Source: Escherichia coli (GTDB lineage Bacteria > Pseudomonadota > Gammaproteobacteria > Enterobacterales > Enterobacteriaceae). Taken from it: a stretch of 64,000 nt of DNA. The stretch lies in NCBI RefSeq assembly GCF_024502345.1, contig NZ_JALDNN010000001.1. One strand, written 5' to 3'. Shown here piece after piece: positions 39,385 to 47,501 of the stretch; positions within the stretch are counted from its first letter, which is position 1, and every line of letters starts with the position of its first letter. Both the position numbers and the translations under genes were made by a program. The notes below the pieces were generated by a model. That model worked only from the letters and a program-made list of their open reading frames with translations. It searched no databases and was not told where the DNA came from.

Positions 39385-41961
39385 TCAGAACAATTCCTGT
39401 GCCTCGCCATTATCGATAATGGTCGTTCCCACCTCGTGCACCGCCTGTTGTGTCGGCTGCGTACCTTCGATGAAATACTCTTCGCGGCTGTTGCCACCAT
39501 TAGCTAACTGCCCGGTGCTGCGATCGATTTTCACCGTCACAATACCTGGCGGCGGCGTCAGCGGCTGCTCCGGCACACCTTCAAGAACGGCTTTCATATA
39601 AGCGTCCCATGCAGGCTGGGCGCTCTTGGCACCGCCTTCGTAACCTGATATCTGATCTTTAATCGCTCCGGAAGCCGTTGTATGACCGAGATTACGACGG
39701 TGATCATCAAAGCCAATCCAGACCGAGGTCACAACGCCCGGACCGTAACCCGAGAACCACGCATCTTTCGAACTGTTAGTGGTACCGGTTTTCCCGCCGA
39801 TATCGCGACGCTGCAAATCACGACCTGCACGCCAGCCGGTACCCTGCCAGCCTGGCTCACCAAAGATATTGGTGTTCAAAGCACTCTTAATCAGGAATGC
39901 CAGCGGAGTGTTGATGACGTGCGGTGCGTACTCCTGCGCGCCAGTCTTCGCCACTAACGCCTGATTTGCCTGCTCCAGCTGCGGCATTGGTACAGAAACA
40001 TTCTGCTGCTCGCGGGAGATAGCGACATCTTCAACATCGTTATTTTCCAGCACGTTCGATTTCTGCGTATCACCGTAAATCACTGGAATATCGCATTCCG
40101 GGCAGGCTACTTTCGGTTTCGCTTCGAAAATCACGCCGCCCTGATCGTTTTCAATTTTGCTGATAAACCACGGGTCCACCAGGAAGCCGCCGTTCGCCAT
40201 GACCGCGTAGCCGCGCGCCACCTGCATTGGGGTGAAGGACGCTGAACCCAGCGCCAGCGATTCGGTGTGGACAATGTTTTGCGCCGGGAAGCCGAAGCGT
40301 TGCAGATATTCTGCAGCGTAGTCGACGCCCATCGCTCGCATTGCGCGTACCATCACCACGTTTTTCGACTGACCCAGCCCCTGACGTAAGCGAATTGGAC
40401 CGGCATACTGCGGTGGTGAGTTTTTCGGCTGCCAGTCAGAACCGGCACCTGCGTCCCAGCGAGAAATTGGCACATCGTTCAACATACTTGCCAGCGTCAG
40501 ACCTTTATCCATCGCCGCGGTGTAGAGGAACGGTTTGATGTTGGAACCCACCTGACGCAGTGCCTGGGTGGCGCGGTTAAACTTGCTCTGATTGAAATCA
40601 AAGCCACCGACCAGCGCCATAACGGCACCATTTTGCGGATTGATCGACACCAGTGCCGAGTTCACTTCCGGCACTTGTGCCAGCCACCATGCATCGCCAA
40701 CCTGACGAACCCAGATTTGCTGGCCCGTTTGCAGAACATCGGTCACTTTACGCGGCGTCGGTCCCTGCTGAGTATCCGAACGGTAAGGACGCGCCCAGCG
40801 AACGCCTTCCATACTCAATGCGACGGTCGACCCGTCCGCCAGCATTGCCGTCGCTTCCTGAGGATTGGCGCTGGTGACTGCGGCAGGCAGCAGCGGACCA
40901 TAGGTCGGCAGCGCCTTCAGCGTATCGGTAATCTTGTTGTTATCCCACGCCGACTCGCCCACTTTCCACAGCACATTTGCCGGGCCGCGATAGCCGTGGC
41001 GCATGTCGTAGTCCAGCACGTTATTACGTACCGCCTGCTGTGCGGCCTGCTGCACTTTGCGGGTGATGGTGGTGTAAATGCGATAACCGTCTTCATAGGC
41101 ACTTTCGCCATAACGGTTATACATCTCCTGGCGCACCATTTCGCTCAGGTACGGCGCAGAAAAAGCAATCTCCGGCGCGTGATAGTTAGCGTTAATCGCC
41201 TCAGTGCGTGTCTGATCGAACTGTTGTTGGGTGATATACCCTTCATCCAGCATCCGCGACAGTACGACGTTACGCCGCGCGACGGCACGATCCATTGAGT
41301 AGAGCGGATTAAAGGTGGAAGGCGCTTTCGGCAGCCCGGCGATCACAGCCATTTCGTTCAGCGTCAGTTGGTCGACCGTTTTACCGAAATAGACTTGTGC
41401 CGCAGCACCGACACCATAGGCGCGGTAACCAAGGTAAATCTTGTTCAGATAAAGCTCGAGGATCTCGTCTTTCGTCAGCAACTGTTCAATGCGAATCGCG
41501 AGGAAGACTTCCTTAATCTTACGCATCAGCGTGCGTTCTGGACTGAGGAAGAAATTTCTCGCCAGCTGCTGGGTAATGGTACTCGCCCCTTGTGACGCGT
41601 GGCCGGAGAACAGCGCCACACTTGCCGCACGGAAGATCCCCACCGGGTCAACGCCGTGATGCTCGTAGAAGCGGCTGTCTTCCGTCGCGATAAAGGCTTT
41701 CACCATCTCTGGCGGGATTTGATCCAGCGTAACCGGAATACGACGTTTCTCACCGTATTGAGCAATCAGCTCGCCATCGGCGCTGTAAATCTGCATCGGA
41801 ATTTGCAGGCGAACATCTTTTAATGTCGCCACATCCGGCAGTTGTGGCTCGATGTAGCGGTATAGGCCATAAATCGAGCCTGCTCCCAGCAGAATGCAAC
41901 AGACTGCAAGGATCAAAAAATACTTTACGAACTTCACTGGAAATTTCCCATTTAGTTTCAT
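39385..41961 (-). CDS. mrcA: penicillin-binding protein 1A (bifunctional glycosyltransferase/transpeptidase)
   Basis: transglycosylase motif EDSRFYEHHG, transpeptidase SxxK region; annotated K-12 start probably 8 codons downstream (GTG at 41937, 850 aa). Confidence 0.94.
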   Translation of the reverse strand: MKLNGKFPVKFVKYFLILAVCCILLGAGSIYGLYRYIEPQLPDVATLKDVRLQIPMQIYSADGELIAQYGEKRRIPVTLDQIPPEMVKAFIATEDSRFYEHHGVDPVGIFRAASVALFSGHASQGASTITQQLARNFFLSPERTLMRKIKEVFLAIRIEQLLTKDEILELYLNKIYLGYRAYGVGAAAQVYFGKTVDQLTLNEMAVIAGLPKAPSTFNPLYSMDRAVARRNVVLSRMLDEGYITQQQFDQTRTEAINANYHAPEIAFSAPYLSEMVRQEMYNRYGESAYEDGYRIYTTITRKVQQAAQQAVRNNVLDYDMRHGYRGPANVLWKVGESAWDNNKITDTLKALPTYGPLLPAAVTSANPQEATAMLADGSTVALSMEGVRWARPYRSDTQQGPTPRKVTDVLQTGQQIWVRQVGDAWWLAQVPEVNSALVSINPQNGAVMALVGGFDFNQSKFNRATQALRQVGSNIKPFLYTAAMDKGLTLASMLNDVPISRWDAGAGSDWQPKNSPPQYAGPIRLRQGLGQSKNVVMVRAMRAMGVDYAAEYLQRFGFPAQNIVHTESLALGSASFTPMQVARGYAVMANGGFLVDPWFISKIENDQGGVIFEAKPKVACPECDIPVIYGDTQKSNVLENNDVEDVAISREQQNVSVPMPQLEQANQALVAKTGAQEYAPHVINTPLAFLIKSALNTNIFGEPGWQGTGWRAGRDLQRRDIGGKTGTTNSSKDAWFSGYGPGVVTSVWIGFDDHRRNLGHTTASGAIKDQISGYEGGAKSAQPAWDAYMKAVLEGVPEQPLTPPPGIVTVKIDRSTGQLANGGNSREEYFIEGTQPTQQAVHEVGTTIIDNGEAQELF

Positions 41962-42056
41962 TTGGGCAGTTTATAAACAAACGCGCGGTAGTATAAAGGC
42001 AAGCCAGACGCATTGATATACCCGTCAGAGTGACGGGTGATAAGGAGATCATCACA

Positions 42057-42836
42057 ATGGCATTTAAGATCTGGCAAATTGGTTTGCATTTACAACAGCA
42101 AGAAGCGGTAGCGGTTGCTATCGTGCGGGGCGCAAAAGAATGCTTTTTGCAACGCTGGTGGCGGTTGCCGCTGGCGCACGACATTATCAAAGATGGGCGG
42201 ATTGTTGATGCGCAGCGGCTGGCTAAAACGTTGTTACCGTGGAGTCGCGAACTGCCGCAGCGCCATCACATCATGTTGGCATTTCCCGCCAGTCGCACAT
42301 TACAGCGGTCATTTCCGCGCCCGTCGATGTCCCTCGGTGAGCGGGAGCAAACGGCCTGGCTGTCCGGGACGATGGCTCGCGAGCTGGATATGGATCCGGA
42401 CTCCCTGCGCTTCGATTACAGCGAAGACTCACTCAGTCCCGCCTATAACGTGACTGCCGCGCAAAGCAAAGAGCTGGCAACGCTGCTTACTCTGGCAGAA
42501 AGGTTGCGTGTTCATGTTAGTGCGATCACCCCGGATGCCAGTGCATTACAGCGATTCCTGCCTTTTTTACCTTCTCATCAGCAATGTCTGGCCTGGCGTG
42601 ATAACGAACAGTGGCTGTGGGCGACACGCTATCGCTGGGGGCGCAAACTGGCGGTGGGGATGACTAGCGCGAAGGAGCTGGCGGCAGCGTTATCCGTTGA
42701 TCCCGAAAGCGTCGCGATATGTGGCGAAGGCGGATTTGATCCCTGGGAGGCCGTTTCTGTTCGTCAGCCGCCGCTACCGCCGCCTGGTGGAGACTTTGCC
42801 ATCGCGCTGGGGCTGGCGCTTGGGAAGGCGTACTGA
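42057..42836 (+). CDS. hofM: type IV pilus / DNA-uptake assembly protein HofM (PilM-like)
   Basis: 259 aa from MAFKIWQIG; first gene of hofMNOPQ. Confidence 0.85.
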   Translation: MAFKIWQIGLHLQQQEAVAVAIVRGAKECFLQRWWRLPLAHDIIKDGRIVDAQRLAKTLLPWSRELPQRHHIMLAFPASRTLQRSFPRPSMSLGEREQTAWLSGTMARELDMDPDSLRFDYSEDSLSPAYNVTAAQSKELATLLTLAERLRVHVSAITPDASALQRFLPFLPSHQQCLAWRDNEQWLWATRYRWGRKLAVGMTSAKELAAALSVDPESVAICGEGGFDPWEAVSVRQPPLPPPGGDFAIALGLALGKAY

Positions 42837-43375
42837 TGAACCCGCCAATTAATTTTTTGCCCTGGCGACAGCAACGCCGGACCGCTTTTCTTCGTTTCTG
42901 GTTGCTGATGTTCGTTGCGCCTCTGCTGCTGGCCGTCGGGATAACGCTAATACTGCGTCTGACAAGCAGCGCCGAAGCGCGCATAGACGCCGTTTTGCTT
43001 CAGGCGGAACAACAACTCGCCCGCAGCTTACAGATAACGAAACCACGTTTGCTGGAGCGCCAACAAATTCGTGAGCAGCGTTTGCAAAGGCAGCGCCAGC
43101 GACAATTTACCCGCGACTGGCAATCTGCGCTGGAAGCACTGGCGGCGCTTTTACCCGAGCACGCCTGGCTGACAACGATAAGCTGGCAGCAGGGAACGCT
43201 GGAGATCAAGGGGCTGACAACAAGCATTACCGCGTTAAACGCACTAGAAATGTCACTCCGCCAGGATGCGTCTTTTCATCTCAATCAGCGGGGAGCCACG
43301 CAGCAGGATGCGCAGGGACGCTGGCAATTTGAGTATCAGTTAACAAGGAAGGTTAGCGATGAACATGTTCTTTGA
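42836..43375 (+). CDS. hofN: HofN (PilN-like)
   Basis: 179 aa; single N-terminal TM; start overlaps the hofM stop. Confidence 0.85.
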   Translation: MNPPINFLPWRQQRRTAFLRFWLLMFVAPLLLAVGITLILRLTSSAEARIDAVLLQAEQQLARSLQITKPRLLERQQIREQRLQRQRQRQFTRDWQSALEALAALLPEHAWLTTISWQQGTLEIKGLTTSITALNALEMSLRQDASFHLNQRGATQQDAQGRWQFEYQLTRKVSDEHVL

Positions 43376-43799
43376 CTGGTGGTTCGCCACATCACCCCGC
43401 CTCCGCCAGCTTTGCTGGGCAGTCTGGTTGCTGATGTTAGTTACGCTCATTTTTCTATCATCGACACACCATGAAGAGCGCGACGCATTAATTCGACTAC
43501 GGGCAAGTCATCACCAGCAGTGGGCCGCACTGTATCGCCTGGTAGACACCACTCCCTTCAGCGAGGAAAAAACGCTGCCCTTTTCGCCACTGGATTTTCA
43601 GTTATCCGGCGCGCAACTGGTTTCCTGGCATCCATCCGCGCAGGGAGGCGAGTTGGCGTTGAAAACGCTGTGGGAAGCAGTGCCGTCGGCATTTACACGG
43701 CTGGCAGAGCGCAACGTCAGCGTGAGCCGTTTTTCGTTAAGCGTGGAAGGTGATGATCTTTTGTTCACGCTACAACTGGAGACGCCGCATGAGGGTTAA
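43359..43799 (+). CDS. hofO: HofO (PilO-like)
   Basis: 146 aa; overlaps hofN by 17 nt. Confidence 0.8.
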   Translation: MNMFFDWWFATSPRLRQLCWAVWLLMLVTLIFLSSTHHEERDALIRLRASHHQQWAALYRLVDTTPFSEEKTLPFSPLDFQLSGAQLVSWHPSAQGGELALKTLWEAVPSAFTRLAERNVSVSRFSLSVEGDDLLFTLQLETPHEG

Positions 43800-44193
43800 A
43801 CGCTGGTTGTTGGCAGGTATTGCATTGTGCCTTTTAACCGGTATGCGTGACCCTTTTAAACCGCCGGAAGATCTATGCCGGATTAGCGAACTTAGCCAGT
43901 GGCGCTATCAGGGGATGGTAGGGCGAGGCGAACGCATCATCGGTGTAATAAAAGACGGGCAAAAGAAATGGCGACGGGTGCAGCAAAACGATGTGCTGGA
44001 AAACGGCTGGACAATTTTACAGCTGACGCCAGACGTACTAACGCTGGGTACCGGGACAAACTGCGAACCGCCACAATGGTTGTGGCAACGGCAAGGAGAT
44101 ACAAATGAAGCAATGGATAGCCGCACTACTGTTGATGCTGATACCCGGCGTACAGGCGGCAAAGCCGCAAAAAGTGACGCTGATGGTGGATGA
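43789..44193 (+). CDS. hofP: HofP (PilP-like lipoprotein)
   Basis: 134 aa from MRVKRWLLAGIALCLLTG (lipoprotein-like signal); overlaps hofO by 11 nt. Confidence 0.8.
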   Translation: MRVKRWLLAGIALCLLTGMRDPFKPPEDLCRISELSQWRYQGMVGRGERIIGVIKDGQKKWRRVQQNDVLENGWTILQLTPDVLTLGTGTNCEPPQWLWQRQGDTNEAMDSRTTVDADTRRTGGKAAKSDADGG

Positions 44194-45343
44194 CGTTCCG
44201 GTAGCTCAGGTGTTGCAGGCGCTGGCTGAACAGGAGAAGTTGAACCTGGTGGTGTCGCCAGACGTCAGCGGTACGGTGTCGTTACATCTAACAGATGTTC
44301 CCTGGAAGCAGGCACTACAAACTGTAGTGAAAAGCGCCGGACTGATAACGCGCCAGGAGGGCAACATTCTCTCGGTGCATTCCGTTGCCTGGCAGAATGA
44401 CAATATCGCCCGTCAGGAGGCGGAGCAGGCGCGGGCGCAGGCAAATCTGCCGCTGGAAAATCGCAATATTACTCTGCAATACGCCGACGCCGGAGAGCTG
44501 GCGAAAGCGGGGGAGAAGCTACTGAGTGCCAAAGGGAGTATGACCGTCGATAAACGCACCAATCGCCTTTTGCTGCGAGATAACAAAACGGCGTTAAGCG
44601 CGCTTGAACAATGGGTAGCGCAAATGGATCTGCCGGTCGGGCAGGTTGAGCTGTCGGCGCATATTGTCACCATTAATGAAAAAAGTTTGCGTGAGTTAGG
44701 CGTGAAATGGACGCTGGCCGATGCGCAACACGCTGGTGGCGTTGGGCAAGTCACCACGCTTGGTAGCGACCTCTCCGTAGCGACGGCGACAACGCATGTC
44801 GGTTTTAACATTGGGCGCATCAACGGACGCTTGCTGGATCTTGAGCTTTCCGCGCTCGAACAAAAACAGCAGCTGGATATTATCGCCAGTCCGCGTCTGC
44901 TGGCCTCACATCTTCAGCCTGCCAGCATTAAACAGGGGAGCGAAATTCCATATCAGGTTTCCAGCGGGGAAAGTGGCGCGACGTCGGTGGAATTTAAAGA
45001 GGCCGTCCTGGGGATGGAGGTCACGCCCACGGTGTTACAAAAAGGTCGCATCCGGCTGAAATTACACATCAGCCAGAACGTTCCGGGGCAGGTGCTACAG
45101 CAGGCCGATGGCGAAGTGCTGGCGATTGATAAGCAGGAGATCGAAACGCAGGTCGAGGTCAAAAGCGGAGAAACGTTGGCGCTGGGCGGCATTTTTACCC
45201 GTAAAAATAAATCGGGTCAGGATAGCGTACCGTTGCTTGGCGACATTCCCTGGTTCGGGCAATTATTTCGTCATGACGGAAAAGAAGATGAACGACGCGA
45301 GTTAGTGGTGTTTATCACGCCACGACTGGTTTCCAGTGAGTAA
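44105..45343 (+). CDS. hofQ: outer-membrane secretin HofQ (DNA uptake pore)
   Basis: 412 aa; signal peptide; secretin C-terminal domain (VPLLGDIPWFGQLF). Confidence 0.92.
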   Translation: MKQWIAALLLMLIPGVQAAKPQKVTLMVDDVPVAQVLQALAEQEKLNLVVSPDVSGTVSLHLTDVPWKQALQTVVKSAGLITRQEGNILSVHSVAWQNDNIARQEAEQARAQANLPLENRNITLQYADAGELAKAGEKLLSAKGSMTVDKRTNRLLLRDNKTALSALEQWVAQMDLPVGQVELSAHIVTINEKSLRELGVKWTLADAQHAGGVGQVTTLGSDLSVATATTHVGFNIGRINGRLLDLELSALEQKQQLDIIASPRLLASHLQPASIKQGSEIPYQVSSGESGATSVEFKEAVLGMEVTPTVLQKGRIRLKLHISQNVPGQVLQQADGEVLAIDKQEIETQVEVKSGETLALGGIFTRKNKSGQDSVPLLGDIPWFGQLFRHDGKEDERRELVVFITPRLVSSE

Positions 45344-45743
45344 ACAGCCGTAAAAGCGGTAATGTTTTTATGCTGAACGTGTTTCATCTATTTGACGCGC
45401 GCAGGTATTTAGCATACAAGGAGTACCGATTTGAGAGTTGGTGCTCTTCGCTGCCTGCGTTCCATGATGATGATTTATCATTCAGGCGGCATTTTGCTGT
45501 CTTTTTTACGCTAATCTTACCCGGTGATTTATCGCCAGAGCGGTGGTAGCAAGGCAGCGCGCTTGCAGCGACCAGATATGCAGAGGGATGGGTGATTTAT
45601 TCAGTTGCCAAACCCGCTGGAGTATTGAGATAATTTTCAGTCTGACTCTCGCAATATCTTATGAGGTTTCAGTTCATGTCCTGCGGCGCTCTCTGAGCGA
45701 AGCGGGTTTATCATTAACGAATAGTCTTAGTAGTACCGAAAAA

Positions 45744-46265
45744 ATGGCAGAGAAACGCAATATCTTTCTGGTTGGGCCTATGGGTGCCGGAAAAAGCACT
45801 ATTGGGCGCCAGTTAGCTCAACAACTCAATATGGAATTTTACGATTCCGATCAAGAGATTGAGAAACGAACCGGAGCTGATGTGGGCTGGGTTTTCGATT
45901 TAGAAGGCGAAGAAGGCTTCCGCGATCGCGAAGAAAAGGTCATCAATGAGTTGACCGAGAAACAGGGTATTGTGCTGGCTACTGGCGGCGGCTCTGTGAA
46001 ATCCCGTGAAACGCGTAACCGTCTTTCCGCTCGTGGCGTTGTCGTTTATCTTGAAACGACCATCGAAAAGCAACTTGCACGCACGCAGCGTGATAAAAAA
46101 CGCCCGTTGCTGCACGTTGAAACACCGCCGCGTGAAGTTCTGGAAGCGTTGGCCAATGAACGCAATCCGCTGTATGAAGAGATTGCCGACGTGACCATTC
46201 GTACTGATGATCAAAGCGCTAAAGTGGTTGCAAACCAGATTATTCACATGCTGGAAAGCAACTAA
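45744..46265 (+). CDS. aroK: shikimate kinase I
   Basis: 173 aa from [19 protein letters not shown] (Walker A); ORF track start is a 67-codon upstream extension. Confidence 0.95.
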
Positions 46266-46321
46266 TTCTGGCTTTATATACACTCGTCTGCGGGTACAGT
46301 AATTAAGGTGGATGTCGCGTT

Positions 46322-47410
46322 ATGGAGAGGATTGTCGTTACTCTCGGGGAACGTAGTTACCCAATTACCATCGCATCTGGTTTGTTTAATGAACCAGCTT
46401 CATTCTTACCGCTGAAATCGGGCGAGCAGGTCATGTTGGTCACCAACGAAACCCTGGCTCCTCTGTATCTCGATAAGGTCCGCGGCGTACTTGAACAGGC
46501 GGGTGTTAACGTCGATAGCGTTACCCTCCCTGACGGCGAGCAGTATAAAAGCCTGGCTGTACTCGATACCGTCTTTACGGCGTTGTTACAAAAGCCGCAT
46601 GGTCGCGATACTACGCTGGTGGCGCTTGGCGGCGGCGTAGTGGGCGATCTGACCGGCTTCGCGGCGGCGAGTTATCAGCGCGGTGTTCGTTTCATTCAAG
46701 TCCCGACGACGTTACTGTCGCAGGTCGATTCCTCCGTTGGCGGCAAAACTGCGGTCAACCATCCCCTCGGTAAAAACATGATTGGCGCGTTCTACCAGCC
46801 TGCTTCAGTGGTGGTGGATCTCGACTGTCTGAAAACGCTTCCCCCGCGTGAGTTAGCGTCGGGGCTGGCAGAAGTCATCAAATACGGCATTATTCTTGAC
46901 GGTGCGTTTTTTAACTGGCTGGAAGAGAATCTGGATGCGTTGTTGCGTCTGGACGGTCCGGCAATGGCGTACTGTATTCGCCGTTGTTGTGAACTGAAGT
47001 CAGAAGTTGTCGCCGCCGACGAGCGCGAAACCGGGTTACGTGCTTTACTGAATCTGGGACACACCTTTGGTCATGCCATTGAAGCTGAAATGGGGTATGG
47101 CAATTGGTTACATGGTGAAGCGGTCGCTGCGGGTATGGTGATGGCGGCGCGGACGTCGGAACGTCTCGGGCAGTTTAGTTCTGCCGAAACGCAGCGTATT
47201 ATAACCCTGCTCACGCGGGCTGGGTTACCGGTCAATGGGCCGCGCGAAATGTCCGCGCAGGCGTATTTACCGCATATGCTGCGTGACAAGAAAGTCCTTG
47301 CGGGAGAGATGCGCTTAATTCTTCCGTTGGCAATTGGTAAGAGTGAAGTTCGCAGCGGCGTTTCGCACGAGCTTGTTCTTAACGCCATTGCCGATTGTCA
47401 ATCAGCGTAA
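46322..47410 (+). CDS. aroB: 3-dehydroquinate synthase
   Basis: 362 aa; NAD-binding GGGVVGD. Confidence 0.95.
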
Positions 47411-47501
47411 CAACAAGAAAGGTCAGGCCGCTTATCAAGCGGTCTATTAGCTTCAGGTTAATTGCAACGTGGTAAGCATTAACCTTTTAGTGGGGTGTTA
47501 A

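Follow-up and report, generated by a model that had tools for sequence, protein, structure and literature searches.

The PilMNOPQ module of type IVa pili is encoded by five co-directional genes in the order M-N-O-P-Q in Pseudomonas aeruginosa, Neisseria meningitidis and Myxococcus xanthus, and the same holds for the competence pilus of Vibrio cholerae. The genes in this order in Escherichia coli K-12 MG1655 are hofMNOPQ (b3395-b3391; formerly yrfDCBA-hofQ), and their role in the use of DNA as a nutrient was reportedly described by Palchevskiy and Finkel in 2006. The comABCDE operon of Haemophilus influenzae is orthologous and shows the same dependence on Sxy and CRP (PMC1635313). No conditions are known under which E. 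coli is naturally competent, and deletion of hofQ abolishes Sxy-dependent natural transformation (Sinha and Redfield 2012, PMC3330819). In laboratory culture, transcription of the yrfD-hofQ operon is poor or not detectable (Cameron and Redfield 2006, PMC1635313). The operon has been described before, as have its annotation and regulation. We analyzed a stretch of 64,000 nt of E. coli DNA (contig NZ_JALDNN010000001.1 of RefSeq assembly GCF_024502345.1; the whole stretch is called the window) that carries hofMNOPQ and in which hofP and hofQ overlap by 89 nt. In a survey by Pallejà et al. in 2008, 715 co-directional overlaps of more than 60 bp contained "not a single real one", and the longest real overlap was that of holD/rimI with 32-56 bp (PMC2478687). 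The present analysis indicates that the window carries the hofMNOPQ DNA-uptake operon with HofQ translated from position 44105, and that the overlap is very probably real, although apparently a passive by-product of the way in which hofQ begins.

A listing of the open reading frames (ORFs) of positions 40500-47500 revealed five intact co-directional ORFs, hofM-hofN-hofO-hofP-hofQ, at 42057-45343. The junctions overlap by 1 nt (hofM/hofN), 17 nt (hofN/hofO), 11 nt (hofO/hofP) and 89 nt (hofP/hofQ). The RefSeq annotation of the closest strain, which was 99.5% identical by megablast, contains the same five genes with the same ends. Gene order, protein lengths (Table 1) and all four overlaps are also identical to those of K-12, to which the genes are 97-99.8% identical in nucleotide sequence with 4 substitutions in HofM, 5 in HofN, 2 in HofO and 3 in HofQ; the amino-acid sequence of HofP and the 89 overlapped bases are the same. 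Thus, the gene coordinates and the four overlaps given in a preliminary description of this DNA were reproduced by the ORF listing, by RefSeq and by K-12. Positions 41500-46000 were found by megablast in 5,425 of 5,426 complete E. coli genomes, with at least 80% coverage in 5,424. In the surrounding 44.5 kb, all co-directional overlaps outside the hof operon are 1-8 nt long (feoC/feoB, ompR/envZ, rpe/gph, gph/trpS, yhfX/yhfW, yhfW/php and frlD/frlC). The 89-nt overlap is a true local outlier.

It had been proposed that the start of HofQ is uncertain, which would make the length of the overlap uncertain as well. The hofQ ORF opens after TAA 44039 and its first start codon is ATG 44105. This ATG is preceded by a well-placed Shine-Dalgarno (SD) sequence (Table 1), whose duplex with the 3' end of 16S rRNA was estimated at -8.5 kcal/mol. 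The protein starting here has the N-terminus MKQWIAALLLMLIPGVQA ahead of the predicted cleavage after Ala18 and continues with AKPQ; its n-region contains a Lys residue, its core is hydrophobic, and V-Q-A forms a motif of the cleavage type. The maximum 10-residue Kyte-Doolittle mean was 2.88, compared with 1.5 or less for the other candidates. The alternative in-frame starts are TTG 44132, ATG 44135, GTG 44174, ATG 44183 and GTG 44186, which would leave overlaps of 62, 59, 20, 11 and 8 nt, respectively. Their duplexes were -1.5 to -5.3 kcal/mol with poor spacing, and in no case do the first five positions include a basic residue. When the candidate starts were compared by these sequence features, an export signal was present at ATG 44105 only. 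Secretins need Sec-dependent export and cannot reach the outer membrane without a signal peptide. Since HofQ as a secretin must be exported, a start that lacks the signal peptide would fail, and a downstream start does not appear viable.

The start was also compared in a set of 80 loci from different species, ranging from Escherichia to Klebsiella, each encoding a HofQ relative. All 79 scorable loci encode a basic n-region and a hydrophobic core after the aligned first start, and an SD-like sequence lies ahead of this start in 78 of the 79. The residue equivalent to Met27 of HofQ is Met in 15 of the 79 loci and Val in 50. These observations bear on the explanation that HofQ starts at a downstream codon (ATG 44135, GTG 44174, ATG 44183 or GTG 44186) and that the overlap is an annotation artefact of the type named "5' extension of the downstream gene". 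In-frame alternative start codons do exist, and the 715 surveyed overlaps above 60 bp were all classed as misannotations, mostly mispredicted starts (PMC2478687). Nevertheless, none of the alternatives possesses an SD sequence, a basic n-region or a hydrophobic core, and conservation is seen for the first start with its SD sequence and signal peptide (78-79 of the 79 loci) but not for the alternative Met codons. Furthermore, codon periodicity in the hofQ frame is already present inside the overlap, and the NCBIfam profile NF007851 covers HofQ from residue 1. A downstream start is therefore highly improbable. As far as the evidence of the sequence goes, HofQ initiates at the first ATG and the annotated start is correct, so the proposed uncertainty is not supported. 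The preliminary description had held that the overlap would be real if HofQ started at the first ATG and thereby gained a functional signal peptide, and this is what the sequence features indicate.

The overlap is not peculiar to the window. Among the 78 Enterobacteriaceae loci that could be scored, it measured 77-98 nt in 65 and exactly 89 nt in 37. Longer overlaps were found in Kluyvera ascorbata (122 nt) and one Enterobacter (140 nt). Shorter ones occur in Pseudocitrobacter, Raoultella and two Enterobacteriaceae isolates without a classification (59-62 nt), in Phytobacter and Kosakonia (38 nt), and in a metagenome-assembled genome (MAG) of Leclercia (UBA7405) and another MAG (4 nt), both of which end HofP at an ATGA in the other frame. 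Judged by the orthologue support at both gene ends, hofP/hofQ qualifies as a real and conserved long (>60 nt) co-directional overlap. Like the real overlap of the survey, it is co-directional, conserved among Enterobacteria and supported by orthologues at both ends; unlike it, it is 89 nt long (77-98 nt in most genera) and exceeds the limit of 60 bp. The pair does not appear in the supplementary lists of the survey (PMC2478687). By the survey's own criterion hofP/hofQ is an exception to the >60-bp rule, but a mechanistically trivial one.

The length of the overlap can be explained by the way in which the two frames meet. Within the overlap, the HofP tail is read one frame off HofQ, the hofP frame lying one base upstream. 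The hofP frame is fixed by the last conserved HofP residues, W97, W99 and G103, and the codons of the conserved R-Q-G motif of HofP (cgg caa gga g) themselves make the ribosome-binding site of hofQ. Two codons stand between G103 and the hofQ ATG, and neither is a stop. Beyond the ATG, a stop in the hofP frame requires a hofQ codon that ends in T and is followed by one beginning with AA (Lys or Asn), AG (Ser as AGY or Arg as AGR) or GA (Asp or Glu). Codon 2 of HofQ encodes Lys but follows the ATG, whose last base is G; a suitable residue does not recur until Lys20, which lies past the hydrophobic core. The hofP stop, TGA 44191-44193, is formed by Asp29-Asp30 of HofQ (GAT GAC) in a conserved VDDVP motif. 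Thus, the overlap is long because there is no hofP stop before the hofQ ATG and because the signal-peptide codons are unable to make a stop in the hofP frame. In the proposed course of events, hofP would run past the hofQ ATG, no stop pairing would arise before Ala19-Lys20 of HofQ, and the first stop to be used would be that in the Asp-Asp codons.

To see what overlap the HofQ protein sequence yields by itself, the codons of the HofQ N-terminus were resampled synonymously 20,000 times according to local codon usage. The resampled overlap was 59 nt in 12%, 86 nt in 22%, 89 nt in 43% and longer in 22% of the cases, and it was never shorter than 59 nt. The observed 89 nt is the modal outcome of the resampling. 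This offers a general reason for long overlaps that are not selected as such: hydrophobic signal-peptide codons cannot make stops in the frame one base upstream, and an upstream gene that passes the downstream start is consequently carried through the whole region. [quoted passage not shown]

It was next considered whether the overlapped HofP tail is itself under selection. Positional entropy was calculated from 17 sequences that align to the HofP of the window without gaps. In the hofP-only sequence, the entropy was highest at hofP position 3 (1.20, compared with 0.60 and 0.45 at the other positions; Mann-Whitney p = 3e-10). Inside the overlap it was 0.88 at hofQ position 3, 0.59 at hofQ position 1 and 0.50 at hofQ position 2, which corresponds to hofP position 3 (p = 0.012). 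Because sites and related sequences enter these tests as if they were independent, the p-values are indicative only, which is one point to be held against our interpretation. The rank order inside the overlap was the same as in the hofQ-only sequence (0.99, 0.37 and 0.23). In the AlphaFold2 model of HofP, residues 108-134 have a predicted local distance difference test (pLDDT) score below 50, and the overlap encodes residues 106-134. Since the loci of different species have overlaps of 4 to 140 nt, the tail can be lost, shortened or extended. These results suggest that the 29-residue tail is most likely a disordered and weakly constrained passenger that may be dispensable.

Its length is fairly uniform (HofP has 131-135 amino acids in most genera), and it ends in a conserved ...AGGG. 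Both features could reflect selection on the tail. The ...AGGG ending, however, is what the conserved V-T-L-V-V-D-D codons of HofQ give when read in the hofP frame, and the codon constraint of VTL-V-VDD in HofQ explains the uniformity equally well. In the corresponding alternative, the HofP tail is functional and selected, for example because it flexibly contacts peptidoglycan or the N0 domain of HofQ, and dual-coding selection or the need for a set HofP:HofQ ratio preserves the overlap. The retention of 77-98 nt by 65 of 78 loci over many genera and the conserved G-G-G or A-G-G-G end would be in accordance with this, as would the binding of the PilP core domain to secretin N0 in related systems (3oss and 4av2, which were among the fold matches of HofP). 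On the contrary, the overlap varies as hofQ alone does, with hofP position 3 the least variable, which is the opposite of a coding signature, and the tail is predicted to be disordered. HofP stops at the hofQ ATG in Leclercia and the related MAG, is cut in Phytobacter and Kosakonia, and is extended in Kluyvera ascorbata and one Enterobacter. In addition, the amino-acid sequence of HofQ alone suffices to reproduce both the tail length and its conserved end. A selected tail is thus unlikely, and the passenger interpretation is preferred.

The identities of the five proteins were examined by profile and structure comparisons. HofQ matched Pfam Secretin (E = 1.9e-47), Secretin_N and STN above their cut-offs and corresponds to NCBIfam NF007851, "DNA uptake porin HofQ", with 856 bits over residues 1-412 of 412; it also scored 448.5 bits against TIGR02515 PilQ (cut-off 284). 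The closest solved relative was the competence PilQ of V. cholerae (6w6m, E = 9e-75, HofQ residues 23-409). Residues 22-23 of HofQ align to residue 158 of 6w6m, 322 of the Neisseria PilQ 4av2 and 338 of 9sh1. Because the alignment begins at residues 22-23, only the signal peptide and no AMIN-type region precedes the N0 domain. In this respect HofQ, which is only 412 amino acids long and starts directly at N0, differs from many PilQ proteins of type IVa pili, in which an AMIN region is typical though not universal; the N0(STN), N1 and secretin domains are shared.

HofP matched Pfam HofP (PF10748) across positions 1-132 of 132. A profile of 77 HofP orthologues gave PilP 3jc8_P as its top match in the Protein Data Bank (PDB), with E = 0.017. 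The AlphaFold2 model had pLDDT values of 85-92 per 10-residue block over residues 31-100 with beta strands at residues 39-101, and a Foldseek search with it returned as PDB matches 1-11 PilP (3jc8_P, 2ivw, 4av2_M, 2lc4, 2y4x and 2y4y), GspC-HR (3oss_C) and LspC. As judged from this model, HofP has a beta domain of the PilP/GspC-HR type, the kind that docks on secretin N0. Unlike the lipoprotein PilP, HofP showed no lipobox ([LVI][ASTVI][GAS]C) in the first 32 residues in any of the 77 orthologues. Cys14 in E. coli HofP is shared by only 4 of the 77, whereas two other cysteines, C30 and C92, are invariant.

HofN matched Pfam PilN (PF05137) with E = 5e-9 and 36.5 bits, the cut-off being 22.8. 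Its N-terminus is MNPPINFLPWR, and (I/V)N(F/L)(L/M)PWR is kept in most of 37 orthologues. In the PilM-PilN structure of Thermus thermophilus, an N-terminal PilN peptide of the INLLP type binds PilM. HofM matched only Pfam T2SSL, with 17 bits and below the cut-off, and had no Pfam PilM match; the single sequence gave no meaningful match in a search against the PDB. A profile of 71 HofM orthologues, on the other hand, matched M. xanthus PilM (3jc8_M, E = 4.3e-5, residues 5-170) and also T. thermophilus PilM (2ych, E = 0.034). HofM thus resembles PilM at the profile level only, and with 259 amino acids, compared with 377-395 for the PilM chains 3jc8_M and 2ych, it is about 100 residues shorter. 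HofO matched its own Pfam family, HofO (PF25319, E = 1.4e-25), and no PilO model at E <=0.01; the position of its gene between the PilN-like and PilP-like genes agrees with PilO. No NCBIfam model matched HofM, HofN, HofO or HofP. The region is a chromosomal counterpart of pilMNOPQ in which the secretin is short and the PilP-like protein is not a lipoprotein. Accordingly, the PilMNOPQ-like identity and the terminal secretin of the preliminary description are supported by Pfam, NCBIfam, the solved relatives and the HofP model. Its label of a cryptic DNA-uptake operon likewise agrees with published expression and transformation work, by which it is well established. In a DNA-uptake machine of the type IV pilus type, HofM, HofN, HofO and HofP would form the alignment subcomplex and HofQ would be the outer-membrane secretin.

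The junctions between the other genes are tight as well. In about 80 species the M/N junction of 1 or 4 nt, the N/O junction of 17 nt and the O/P junction of 11 nt are conserved; the 17-nt hofN/hofO overlap is kept in most loci, and Enterobacter has a 3-nt gap instead. Such tight or overlapping junctions of 1, 17 and 11 nt may lead to translational coupling, by which the subunits of one complex would be made in linked amounts. hofQ probably initiates alone, since it has the best-placed SD sequence of the four internal starts and the mRNA there is unstructured. It was also considered that translation of hofP unmasks a hidden ribosome-binding site of hofQ. This was rejected because the SD sequence and the AUG are unpaired and the local fold has z = -0.95; the predicted mRNA fold showed no sign of structure-based coupling at the hofQ start.

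Odd overlaps might also arise in a decaying operon under relaxed selection. Besides the poor transcription in laboratory culture mentioned above (PMC1635313), such a relic would be in line with the nonsense codons in hofO and hofP of the Escherichia albertii type strain and with the apparent disruption of some Citrobacter and Phytobacter loci in automated calls. In the window, however, all five ORFs are intact at their K-12 lengths, and 5,424 of 5,426 E. coli genomes carry the region. Codon periodicity of the coding type was observed in both hofP and hofQ, the junction architecture is kept across about 80 species, and deletion of hofQ has a phenotype (PMC3330819). It is thus very improbable that the operon is a relic.

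Disrupted relatives were recorded as follows. In E. albertii NBRC 107761 (L002:3255-4090), in-frame stops are present at codon 70 of hofO and codon 34 of hofP, while hofM, hofN and hofQ are intact; the operon of this strain is probably inactivated. The automated boundary calls, which may include script artefacts, reported loss of the hofM stop in Citrobacter amalonaticus (L011), a short hofM in Phytobacter massiliensis (L028), fragmented hofM and hofQ in Citrobacter koseri (L040) and a short hofO in Raoultella planticola (L075).

As for regulation, Sxy raises the expression of yrfD (hofM) 16-fold in a manner dependent on CRP and cyclic AMP (cAMP), and CRP binds weakly to a hofM promoter fragment with two predicted CRP-S sites (PMC1635313). 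The primers used for this fragment in the electrophoretic mobility shift assay (EMSA) correspond to 41781-41800 and 41885-41906 of the window, which is 150-275 bp upstream of the hofM ATG. The whole fragment falls inside mrcA, the divergent gene on the minus strand, and covers part of the first ~160 nt of its coding sequence. The regulatory DNA of a silent operon is thereby embedded in a gene of an essential pathway. [quoted passage not shown] A search for the CRP-S core TGCGA-N6-TCGCA with at most 2 mismatches found none in or near the region upstream of hofM, and matches across the window were below chance expectation. The best match to the core, TGCATcggaatTTGCA at 41792-41807, had 3 mismatches. 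A later CRP-Sxy paper makes no mention of hofM. Sxy/TfoX and cAMP-CRP would switch the operon on through weak CRP-S sites inside the mrcA coding sequence.

A few further points speak against our account of the operon. Start-site, N-terminal and ribosome-profiling data on HofQ or HofP were not found in the searchable literature, and the signal-peptide call is based on simple features and conservation. HofM and HofO resemble PilM and PilO weakly in sequence, and the CRP-S sites are not confirmable from the sequence, the best core having 3 mismatches.

Two conserved elements lie between the CRP-S fragment and hofM. The first is a 57-nt intergenic block, TGGGCAGTTTATAAACAAACGCGCGGTAGTATAAAGGCAAGCCnGAnGCATTGATATA, which is near-invariant in 62 distinct sequences and far more conserved than the flanking hofM coding sequence, while the protein identity of HofM drops to 40-50%. 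Within it is TTTATA-16 nt-TATAAA, whose hexamers read identically on either strand and which may be an overlapping promoter that serves mrcA and hofM in opposite directions. The block is probably shared or divergent promoter and leader DNA of mrcA and hofM. A consensus scan of 41650-42150 for promoters and terminators gave one unconvincing minus-strand site and no terminator, and TTTATA-TATAAA was not called; a literature search for a promoter or transcription start of mrcA or hofM retrieved nothing relevant. The mrcA ORF, annotated in RefSeq from GTG 41937 on the minus strand (850 amino acids), can be extended by 8 codons to ATG 41961 (858 amino acids, beginning with MKLNGKFPVKFVKY). This upstream ATG abuts the 57-nt block.

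The second element is a stem-loop just upstream of the hofM SD sequence, composed of ACCCGTCA, the loop gag and TGACGGGT in a perfect 8-bp inverted repeat. In the 62 sequences, 70% of the cells were paired and 32 cells were changed on both sides. These values were reached by none of 500 shuffles, and all slid-partner controls were lower. Compensatory changes were found in Citrobacter, Enterobacter and Kluyvera, for example from TCA/TGA to TTG/CAA in a Citrobacter. The fold of the hofM leader RNA had z = -2.66. It may be imagined that a selected HofP tail, which tethers HofP to HofQ or sets their ratio, is combined with an undescribed silencing control element made up of the 57-nt block and the covarying hairpin; we regard this joint interpretation as unlikely. 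The block and the hairpin nevertheless provide concrete targets for asking why E. coli keeps its DNA-uptake machinery silent. The practical value is small. The coordinates of all features are collected in Table 1.

Table 1. Features of the hofMNOPQ region, numbered from the first letter of the window
Feature	Position	Strand	Description
Published hofM (yrfD) EMSA promoter fragment	41781-41906	+	primers of PMC1635313 map with 0 mismatches; two weak CRP-S sites reported at its ends
mrcA-hofM intergenic 57-nt block	41963-42019		near-invariant in 62 distinct sequences, Escherichia to Klebsiella
Stem-loop	42020-42038	+	perfect 8-bp inverted repeat, 3 nt upstream of the hofM Shine-Dalgarno sequence
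hofM	42057-42836	+	259 amino acids, PilM-like cytoplasmic component; Shine-Dalgarno AAGGAG at 42042-42047
hofN	42836-43375	+	179 amino acids, PilN-like; start shares 1 nt with the hofM stop (TGATG)
hofO	43359-43799	+	146 amino acids; PilO position; overlaps hofN by 17 nt
hofP	43789-44193	+	134 amino acids, PilP-like, predicted periplasmic; residues 106-134 encoded inside hofQ
hofQ Shine-Dalgarno sequence AAGGAG	44093-44098	+	6 nt before the ATG; within the HofP R-Q-G codons
hofQ	44105-45343	+	412 amino acids, outer-membrane secretin; signal peptide, N0(STN), N1 and secretin domains
hofP/hofQ dual-coding overlap	44105-44193	+	HofQ signal peptide (44105-44158) and first 11 mature residues
Terminator-like hairpin with T-run	45484-45512	+	140 nt past hofQ; consensus scan; not above shuffled expectation
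aroK promoter-like site TTGCCA-18-GATAAT, upstream TG	45605-45634		consensus scan; not above shuffled expectation

Downstream of hofQ, a spacer of 400 nt (45344-45744) separates the operon from aroK. A search of the window (1-64000) against Rfam at the gathering threshold gave 0 matches. The terminator-like hairpin in this spacer is a possible end of the operon.

Two records of the comparative set do not match their labels well. A contig labelled "Chryseobacterium sp. 18061" (L063) carries a hof operon of the Enterobacteriaceae type with a HofQ identity of 71%, and HofQ of "Escherichia sp. ESNIH1" (L032) has an identity of only 74%. Both probably reflect contamination or a mislabelled taxon in the public records.

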